From Escherichia coli (GTDB taxonomy: Bacteria > Pseudomonadota > Gammaproteobacteria > Enterobacterales > Enterobacteriaceae), in assembly GCF_017348835.2 (NCBI RefSeq), contig NZ_CP071375.1: a DNA stretch of 64,000 nucleotides. One strand, written 5' to 3'. Below, one piece after another: positions 25,058 through 26,323 of the stretch (position 1 is its first letter; the number at the start of each line of letters is the position of its first letter). The position numbers and the translations under genes were made by a program. The notes beneath the pieces were generated by a model. That model was not told the DNA's origin. It was given only the letters and a program-made list of their open reading frames with translations, and made no database searches.

Positions 25058-26323
25058 ATGCTCACGAAAAAGAAATGGGCGTTATTTAGTCTATTAACAC
25101 TGTGTGGCGGTACAATTTATAAATTACCGTCGCTGAAAGATGCGTTTTATATCCCGATGCAGGAATATTTCCATTTGACCAATGGTCAAATTGGTAATGC
25201 TATGTCGGTAAACTCATTTGTTACCACAGTGGGCTTTTTTCTGTCTATTTATTTTGCCGATAAACTACCGCGCAGATACACCATGTCATTCTCACTCATT
25301 GCGACAGGATTACTGGGTGTTTATTTGACGACAATGCCGGGGTATTGGGGCATCCTCTTTGTCTGAGCGCTATTTGGCGTTACTTGCGACATGATGAACT
25401 GGCCGGTCTTGCTCAAGTCGGTAAGTCGATTGGGCAATAGCGAACAACAAGGTCGGTTGTTTGGCTTCTTCGAAACAGGGCGTGGCATTGTCGATACCGT
25501 GGTGGCATTTTCTGCGTTGGCAGTATTTACCTGGTTTGGCAGTGGCTTATTGGGTTTTAAAGCAGGCATCTGGTTCTATTCCCTTATTGTGATTGCCGTA
25601 GGCATTATTATTTTCTTTGTCCTGAATGACAAAGAAGAGGCACCGTCCGTTGAGGTGAAAAAAGAAGACGGAGCATCGCAAAACACCAGTATGACCTCGG
25701 TGCTGAGAGACAAAACTATCTGGCTTATCGCTTTCAACGTCTTCTTCGTTTACGCGGTTTACTGTGGCCTGACATTCTTCATTCCATTCCTGAAAAACAT
25801 CTATCTATTGCCCGTTGCGCTGGTGGGGGCTTACGGCATCATTAACCAATACTGTCTGAAAATGATTGGTGGACCGATTGGTGGCATGATTTCAGATAAG
25901 ATCCTGAAATCGCCAAGTAAATATCTATGCTACACCTTTATCATCAGTACCGCTGCGCTCGTACTGTTGATTATGCTGCCGCACGAAAGTATGCCGGTCT
26001 ATTTAGGGATGGCATGTACGCTGGGCTTTGGCGCGATAGTCTTTACACAGCGAGCCGTATTTTTTGCACCTATCGGCGAAGCAAAAATTGCTGAGAATAA
26101 AACAGGCGCGGCGATGGCGTTGGGTAGCTTTATTGGTTACGCCCCGGCGATGTTCTGCTTCAGTCTGTATGGCTACATTCTGGATTTAAATCCGGGGATT
26201 ATTGGCTACAAAATCGTGTTTGGCATTATGGCCTGCTTCGCATTCTGTGGTGCGGTGGTTTCCGTAATGCTGGTTAAGCGTATTAGCCAACGTAAGAAAG
26301 AGATGCTGGCGGCTGAAGCTTAA
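25058..26323 (+). pseudogene. yihN: MFS transporter yihN, interrupted by an in-frame TGA
   Basis: Track ORFs 25058..25366 and 25391..26323 are in the same frame, separated by one TGA (25364..25366: ...GTC TGA GCG...). Read through, the total is 421 codons, the length I recall for intact YihN. Confidence 0.8.

Follow-up and report, generated by a model that had tools for sequence, protein, structure and literature searches.

A nonsense codon interrupts yihN

The window analysed here, a stretch of 64,000 nucleotides of Escherichia coli DNA, carries a yihN gene with a premature TGA at codon 103, which very probably inactivates the gene by simple nonsense mutation and is passed on within a single clone. 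Translation of the window confirmed the initial annotation, according to which a TGA at 25364..25366 splits yihN into two same-frame open reading frames that together give 421 codons: the gene (25058..26323, + strand) comprises 421 sense codons and a single internal in-frame stop, with the surrounding residues reading ...GILFV*ALFGVTCDMM.... The features of the region, taken from the ORF list, from our reading of the window and from the annotation of strain PE164 mapped onto the window (offset checked by colinear alignment), are as follows.

23258..23968, + strand: yihL, GntR-family regulator, intact
23976..24956, + strand: yihM, sugar-phosphate isomerase/epimerase family, intact
25058..26323, + strand: yihN pseudogene of an MFS transporter (sugar-phosphate-permease type), 421 codons and the natural stop
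25058..25366, + strand: truncated YihN, 102 aa, ending where hydrophobic segment 99-117 begins
25364..25366, + strand: premature TGA, yihN codon 103, mutated base A at 25366, ancestral G (TGG = Trp)
25391..26323, + strand: downstream ORF, 310 aa, same frame, opening at the first ATG past the yihN stop
26414..27106, - strand: ompL porin, intact, convergent with yihN

A chance origin of the stop can be dismissed, since this conserved gene is perfectly preserved apart from that single stop. Two features define yihN as a nonsense pseudogene: the codon is a sense codon in orthologues and the remainder of the gene is colinear with them. The lesion is of an ordinary kind and was previously recorded by RefSeq; in PE164 and F2_81, PGAP lists yihN as an MFS transporter pseudogene with an 'internal stop'. 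The 102-aa product (P0121 / WP_162522535.1) has exact copies on 185 contigs, and the 421-aa protein with Trp restored has exact counterparts, named YihN, on at least 1000 contigs.

When the tryptophan was restored, the full-length YihN matched MFS_1 (PF07690) over residues 33-364 with 93.9 bits, above the cut-off of 33.4 (E = 1.2e-26). The gene thus belongs to the MFS family by sequence, by the gathering threshold, but lacks an uninterrupted frame for all helices, and its encoded product is cut short; by hydropathy, the stop falls at the N-terminal edge of hydrophobic segment 99-117. The best family-level matches were organophosphate:phosphate antiporters (PgtP, GlpT, UhpT and SLC37A4). Repaired YihN matched the PgtP model TIGR00881 with E = 5e-18, and its 65.3 bits are far below the NCBIfam cut-off of 407.75, which makes it a relative and not a member of the PgtP subfamily. 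It also matched the solved structure of SLC37A4 (E = 8e-5, residues 14-283). Membership in the YihN orthologue group itself is supported by near-identity and by the same neighbours as in PE164, F2_81 and XJ34.

The genes yihL, yihM and yihN presumably form one unit, yihLMN. Polar effects of the yihN stop are impossible, because no same-strand gene lies downstream and ompL is convergent. A REP-like palindromic element (26338..26410) is located directly 3' of the natural yihN stop, and an Rfam scan of 24900..26450 returned sub-threshold naRNA4 matches past yihN on both strands (40.6 and 23.9 bits, gathering threshold 59.5). The numbers of promoters and terminators predicted in 22900..26500 equalled the shuffle expectation. 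In six other loci (L002, L013, L021, L025, L028 and L030), csqR/yihV follows yihN directly and ompL to yihS are missing, and in XJ34 csqR and yihV are present as fragments only; on account of these losses, the segment between yihN and the sulfoquinovose regulator is deletion-prone and variable.

Trp103 is ancestral and conserved

The initial annotation had pointed out that TGA is one step away from TGG, and TGG is indeed the ancestral codon. The nearest intact allele, that of XJ34, has TGG and differs from the yihN gene of the window at five positions, namely the G to A change at 25366 and four synonymous sites. Among 5,426 complete E. coli genomes, yihN was matched in 4,300, of which 3,114 were at least 99% identical to the window gene and only two, PE164 and F2_81, were 100% identical. 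At codon 103 these genomes carried TGA in 2 cases, TGG in 4,279 and TAG in none. These alleles were counted with 33-mers centred on the tested base (position 17), an arrangement in which any 28-base megablast seed has to include it; identity bands of 81-mers were dropped, as they leave TGG indistinguishable from TGA with a second mismatch. Both TGA carriers among the complete genomes are pig isolates, PE164 from China and F2_81 from Australia.

A comparison of codon 103 with orthologues, which had been proposed together with the original observation, showed that Trp103 is identical in all 35 aligned homologues, which range from Enterobacterales to Clostridia with at least 55% identity; the residue is also aligned to a tryptophan of human SLC37A4, the sole solved relative found. 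Orthologues with a conserved stop and a downstream restart, the outcome that would have spoken against inactivation, were not found. A Dcm hotspot was ruled out as the source of the codon-103 change, as its context is GTC TGG GCG and not CCWGG. Together with the lack of any other amino-acid change, the at least 99.98% identity of the flanks among TGA carriers bears out the proposal that the inactivation is recent.

The TGA is shared within a pig-associated clone

Over about 59 kb the window aligns colinearly with PE164 and differs from it at 6 single bases; it hence represents a near-identical sibling of PE164 and not the PE164 record itself. PE164, isolated from a pig in Nanjing, is an O108:H9 atypical EPEC/ExPEC hybrid with LEE/eae from a piglet with bloody diarrhoea; its genome is about 5.03 Mb, several models showed it to be highly virulent, and PE150, another O108:H9 isolate, was reported with it (PMC12233904). 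F2_81 was obtained from a pig rectal swab in Australia, and a literature search on this strain returned nothing relevant. The TGA is present on the window haplotype in six independent assemblies (PE164, F2_81, GCA_900195765.1, GCA_002459205.1, GCA_019365225.1 and a metagenome contig), and the loci L010, L015, L016 and L017 show the window haplotype with TGA at yihN codon 103.

We propose, with high confidence, that a single G:C to A:T transition at 25366 turned the invariant Trp103 codon TGG into TGA, and that translation would consequently end after 102 residues, where hydrophobic segment 99-117 starts. As 102 residues leave too few helices for a 12-helix MFS fold, the cell would contain no YihN. 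The mutation would have a single origin, in the common ancestor of the pig-associated clone to which PE164 (O108:H9 atypical EPEC, from China), F2_81 (from Australia) and a number of draft and metagenome assemblies belong, and would have been inherited by its members. Judged from the sequence, the 102-aa product and any restart product are probably non-functional, and the loss is probably neutral or nearly so, given that yihLMN is dispensable (see below). In E. coli, UGA can be read by near-cognate tRNA-Trp, which restores the original Trp residue, and a low level of full-length wild-type YihN may be made in this way.

Two further lesions mentioned in the initial annotation, in yihO and in a porin gene, could be placed relative to the yihN stop using these features.

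27173..28056, - strand: yihO, C-terminal part, cut by IS copy A (PE164 annotation and window reading)
28057..29366, - strand: IS3-family element, copy A, 1310 bp, in yihO
46172..46694, + strand: yihO, N-terminal part, displaced about 17 kb by inversion (window reading)
46695..48004, + strand: IS3-family element, copy B, exact inverted copy of A (window reading)
61538..62932, + strand: carbohydrate porin, amber TAG at 62546..62548 (A at 62547); PE164 has TGG (G at 62547)

The 3-bp flanks of copies A and B are reciprocal reverse complements (GAA/TTC and CAT/ATG), which indicates that two IS insertions were followed by inversion of 29367..46694 through IS-IS recombination. By this pattern, one insertion occurred in yihO and the other between yiiE and yiiF. 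The inverted segment (17.3 kb) holds most of the sulfoquinovose cluster. F2_81 shows the uninverted order, and yihO is intact in F2_81, L010, L015 and L016 and carries an IS3-family element in PE164, the window and L017. The codon affected in the porin gene lies in the context ACC TGG, a CCTGG Dcm site, and, barring an assembly error, the amber looks like the product of 5-methylcytosine deamination private to the window strain. This 'amber-stopped porin' is distinct from the yihN neighbour ompL, which is intact. From the distribution of carriers, the lesions can be ordered: the clone-wide yihN stop came first, the insertion and inversion at yihO followed in a subclade, and the porin amber arose in this strain. 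All three inactivated genes that had been pointed out are therefore real, but they have three different ages.

Stop codons recur in yihL, yihM and yihN

Nonsense alleles of yihN were found on many backgrounds. Codon 103 is stopped on five of them, as TGA in the window clone and in L012 and as TAG in L011/L018, L013 and L014; the stops of L012 and L014 are independent, since these loci have only two other differing sites yet carry different stop codons. Nine haplotype groups carry a stop at W115 (eight TGA, one TAG), and three backgrounds have TAA at Q208. At W159, six backgrounds show TAG, and TGA was never seen among the ten places read (L020-L029). CCWGG Dcm sites are amber hotspots via 5-methylcytosine deamination, as is classic in lacI, and codon 159 (window 25532..25534) lies inside such a site, CCTGG, which accounts for the repeated appearance of the W159 change and for its direction. 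Real internal stops were also found at yihL W98 (TAG and TGA) and yihM Q152 (TAG). Among about 4,288 complete genomes, W103TGA was present in 2 and W159TAG in 3, with W103TAG and Q208TAA both absent; the five carriers are all from livestock (four pig, one turkey). In 1,126 of the 5,426 complete E. coli genomes, about a fifth, yihN had no match.

The independent stops in yihL, yihM and yihN on many backgrounds imply that yihLMN is dispensable. The yihN deletion strain of the Keio collection could be grown and has served in dye-uptake assays (PMC8131027). Most simply, yihLMN is read as a weakly constrained module that the cell can do without, and a collection as large as this one would contain several hits at each one-step nonsense site. 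Three loci with a W115 stop (L069, L071 and L077) have second lesions, with yihM cut to 292 or 255 aa or a TGA at yihN codon 332, which suggests that yihLMN decays stepwise after a first lesion. Five yihN contigs stop at the same base after codon 207, suggesting that an IS or other repeat was inserted there in some lineage.

The contig counts obtained for truncated proteins have to be read against an artefactual background. Among the 12 yihN truncation products tested, 6 were found on 148 to over 1000 contigs, and control truncations at ten sites in yihL, yihM, typA and glnA were found on 0-59 contigs. Arbitrary truncations gave about 30-60 contigs, essential genes included. All 10 places shown for a 158-aa truncation of glnA (L039-L048) were genes cut by a contig end, as were look-up loci of yihL (L056-L057), yihM (L062-L067) and yihN (L019 and L034-L038). 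About 35-55 contigs thus represent background, due to genes that are cut at contig ends and stored as proteins. Raw contig counts were rejected as a sign of selection, as truncations of glnA and typA also reached 35-54 contigs.

Alternative explanations of the yihN stop

The 6 single-base changes between the window and PE164 in about 59 kb could in principle each be an error, and the TGA itself might be a sequencing or assembly error that hides a true TGG; the TGA is not among the six, however, and it is common to independent assemblies from different laboratories and countries, which makes an error practically negligible as an explanation. A recoded TGA, read as selenocysteine or by programmed readthrough in a working yihN, is very unlikely. 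UGA is the selenocysteine codon and, of the stop codons of E. coli, the leakiest; the window contains a true example of its recoding, the selenocysteine TGA at codon 196 (53472..53474, - strand) inside fdoG (51009..54059), which encodes formate dehydrogenase-O subunit alpha. In yihN, by contrast, the position lies inside a hydrophobic segment, Trp is ancestral and family-wide, TGG is present in 4,279 genomes, and none of the 35 homologues has Sec or Cys there; moreover, Rfam gave no match within yihN, and as the first downstream difference from XJ34 is 186 bases away, a recoding element cannot have appeared together with the stop. In E. coli, basal readthrough usually stays well under a few percent. 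Folding of the 62 nt after the yihN TGA gave z = 0.12 against shuffles, but the true fdoG selenocysteine site gave z = 0.14, and the fold test was discounted as powerless because the genuine fdoG SECIS was also undetected. It is similarly improbable that the 310-aa fragment, alone or with the 102-aa fragment, forms a functional split transporter. Split MFS proteins such as LacY sometimes reassemble from co-expressed halves, an in-frame ATG at 25391 lies 8 codons past the TGA, and gene callers list the 310-aa ORF separately. Against a restart, inspection of the sequence upstream of this ATG found no Shine-Dalgarno-like sequence, residues 103-111, comprising Trp103 and most of segment 99-117, are absent from both fragments, and a conserved stop-plus-restart occurs in no orthologue.

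Whether the loss was selected, for example by lowering the uptake of toxic cationic compounds, and was not neutral decay, deserves more weight, although we regard it as unlikely. Deletion of yihN reduces the accumulation of many cationic dyes, several of them more than 10-fold (PMC8131027), and if selection did act, the removal of an influx transporter would cut the uptake of a toxic cationic compound in the livestock niche. The occurrence of stops at codons 103, 115, 159 and 208 on many independent haplotypes, the excess of 6 of the 12 yihN truncations over the ten controls and the livestock origin of 5 of 5 complete-genome carriers point in the same direction. The alleles are rare, however (the four tested alleles total 5 carriers in about 4,288 complete genomes), contig counts mirror the sampling of clones and not the number of events, the W159 TAG sits in a Dcm mutational hotspot, and recurrent real stops are also present in yihL and yihM; by a rough estimate, several hits per neutral transition site are expected at this collection size. 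We consider it rather improbable, too, that yihN, and perhaps all of yihLMN, is recurrently lost by selection in livestock E. coli, with the W103 stop of the O108:H9 pig clone as one of many parallel knockouts.

Pseudogene and IS load of the lineage

The initial annotation saw in the three lesions a lineage undergoing gene decay, Shigella-like or host-restricted. The lineage is in fact rich in IS elements and pseudogenes, but nothing that we found shows it to be Shigella-like or host-restricted. The 1310-bp IS3-family element occupies 32 chromosomal places in PE164 and 26 in F2_81, with a median of 4 and a maximum of 53 among genomes with at least one copy; the PE164 and F2_81 counts are comparable to those of O103-type STEC. 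In four samples of 50 kb at 1, 2, 3 and 4 Mb, PE164 had 4, 2, 8 and 0 pseudogene features and XJ34 had 1, 0, 0 and 0 (14 vs 1), a comparison of 200 kb per strain with samples that are not syntenic and XJ34 as the single comparator. These counts support a raised pseudogene and IS load in the PE164 lineage.

At 1,022,000-1,030,000 of the PE164 chromosome (NZ_CP114128.1; L006 22184..29610), a copy of the IS3-family element adjoins cas3, and the type I-E cas operon is left with cas3, casA, a casB fragment and cas2e. Near this cas3, a frameshift disrupts the MFS gene yqcE, whose XJ34 copy is intact.

Significance and comparison with known systems

On its own, the yihN stop is one more strain-specific pseudogene and of minor importance. 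The TGA at codon 103 is nevertheless a single-base marker of the pig-associated clone of PE164, F2_81 and their relatives, and, combined with the yihO insertion and the porin amber, it allows subclades to be marked in order. Strains that are naturally null for yihN could aid the search for the substrate of this orphan transporter. A practical warning also emerges, as large assembly collections will 'find' any truncated protein because of contig ends.

The K-12 counterpart, YihN (UniProt P32135), is an inner-membrane orphan MFS transporter encoded by the same gene at the same locus, which, as in the window, lies behind yihL and yihM, is convergent with ompL and adjoins the sulfoquinovose cluster; in the window gene, codon 103 is TGA in place of TGG, so that 102 of 421 residues are made. 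The Dcm ambers of lacI resemble the W159 TAG of yihN in other strains and the porin amber of the window, all being TGG to TAG changes in CCTGG, and are unlike the change at yihN codon 103, which is a G to A transition too but lies outside a Dcm site. In its IS content, the lineage resembles IS-rich attaching-and-effacing E. coli of the O157:H7 and O103:H2 type, in which the same 1310-bp IS3-family element has multiplied; the 13-35 places of this element in O103 and related strains are similar to the 32 in PE164. Shigella represents the extreme of pseudogene accumulation; the pseudogene density of PE164 is raised relative to XJ34. Points of difference are the genome size of PE164, about 5.03 Mb, and its full virulence in several models (PMC12233904).
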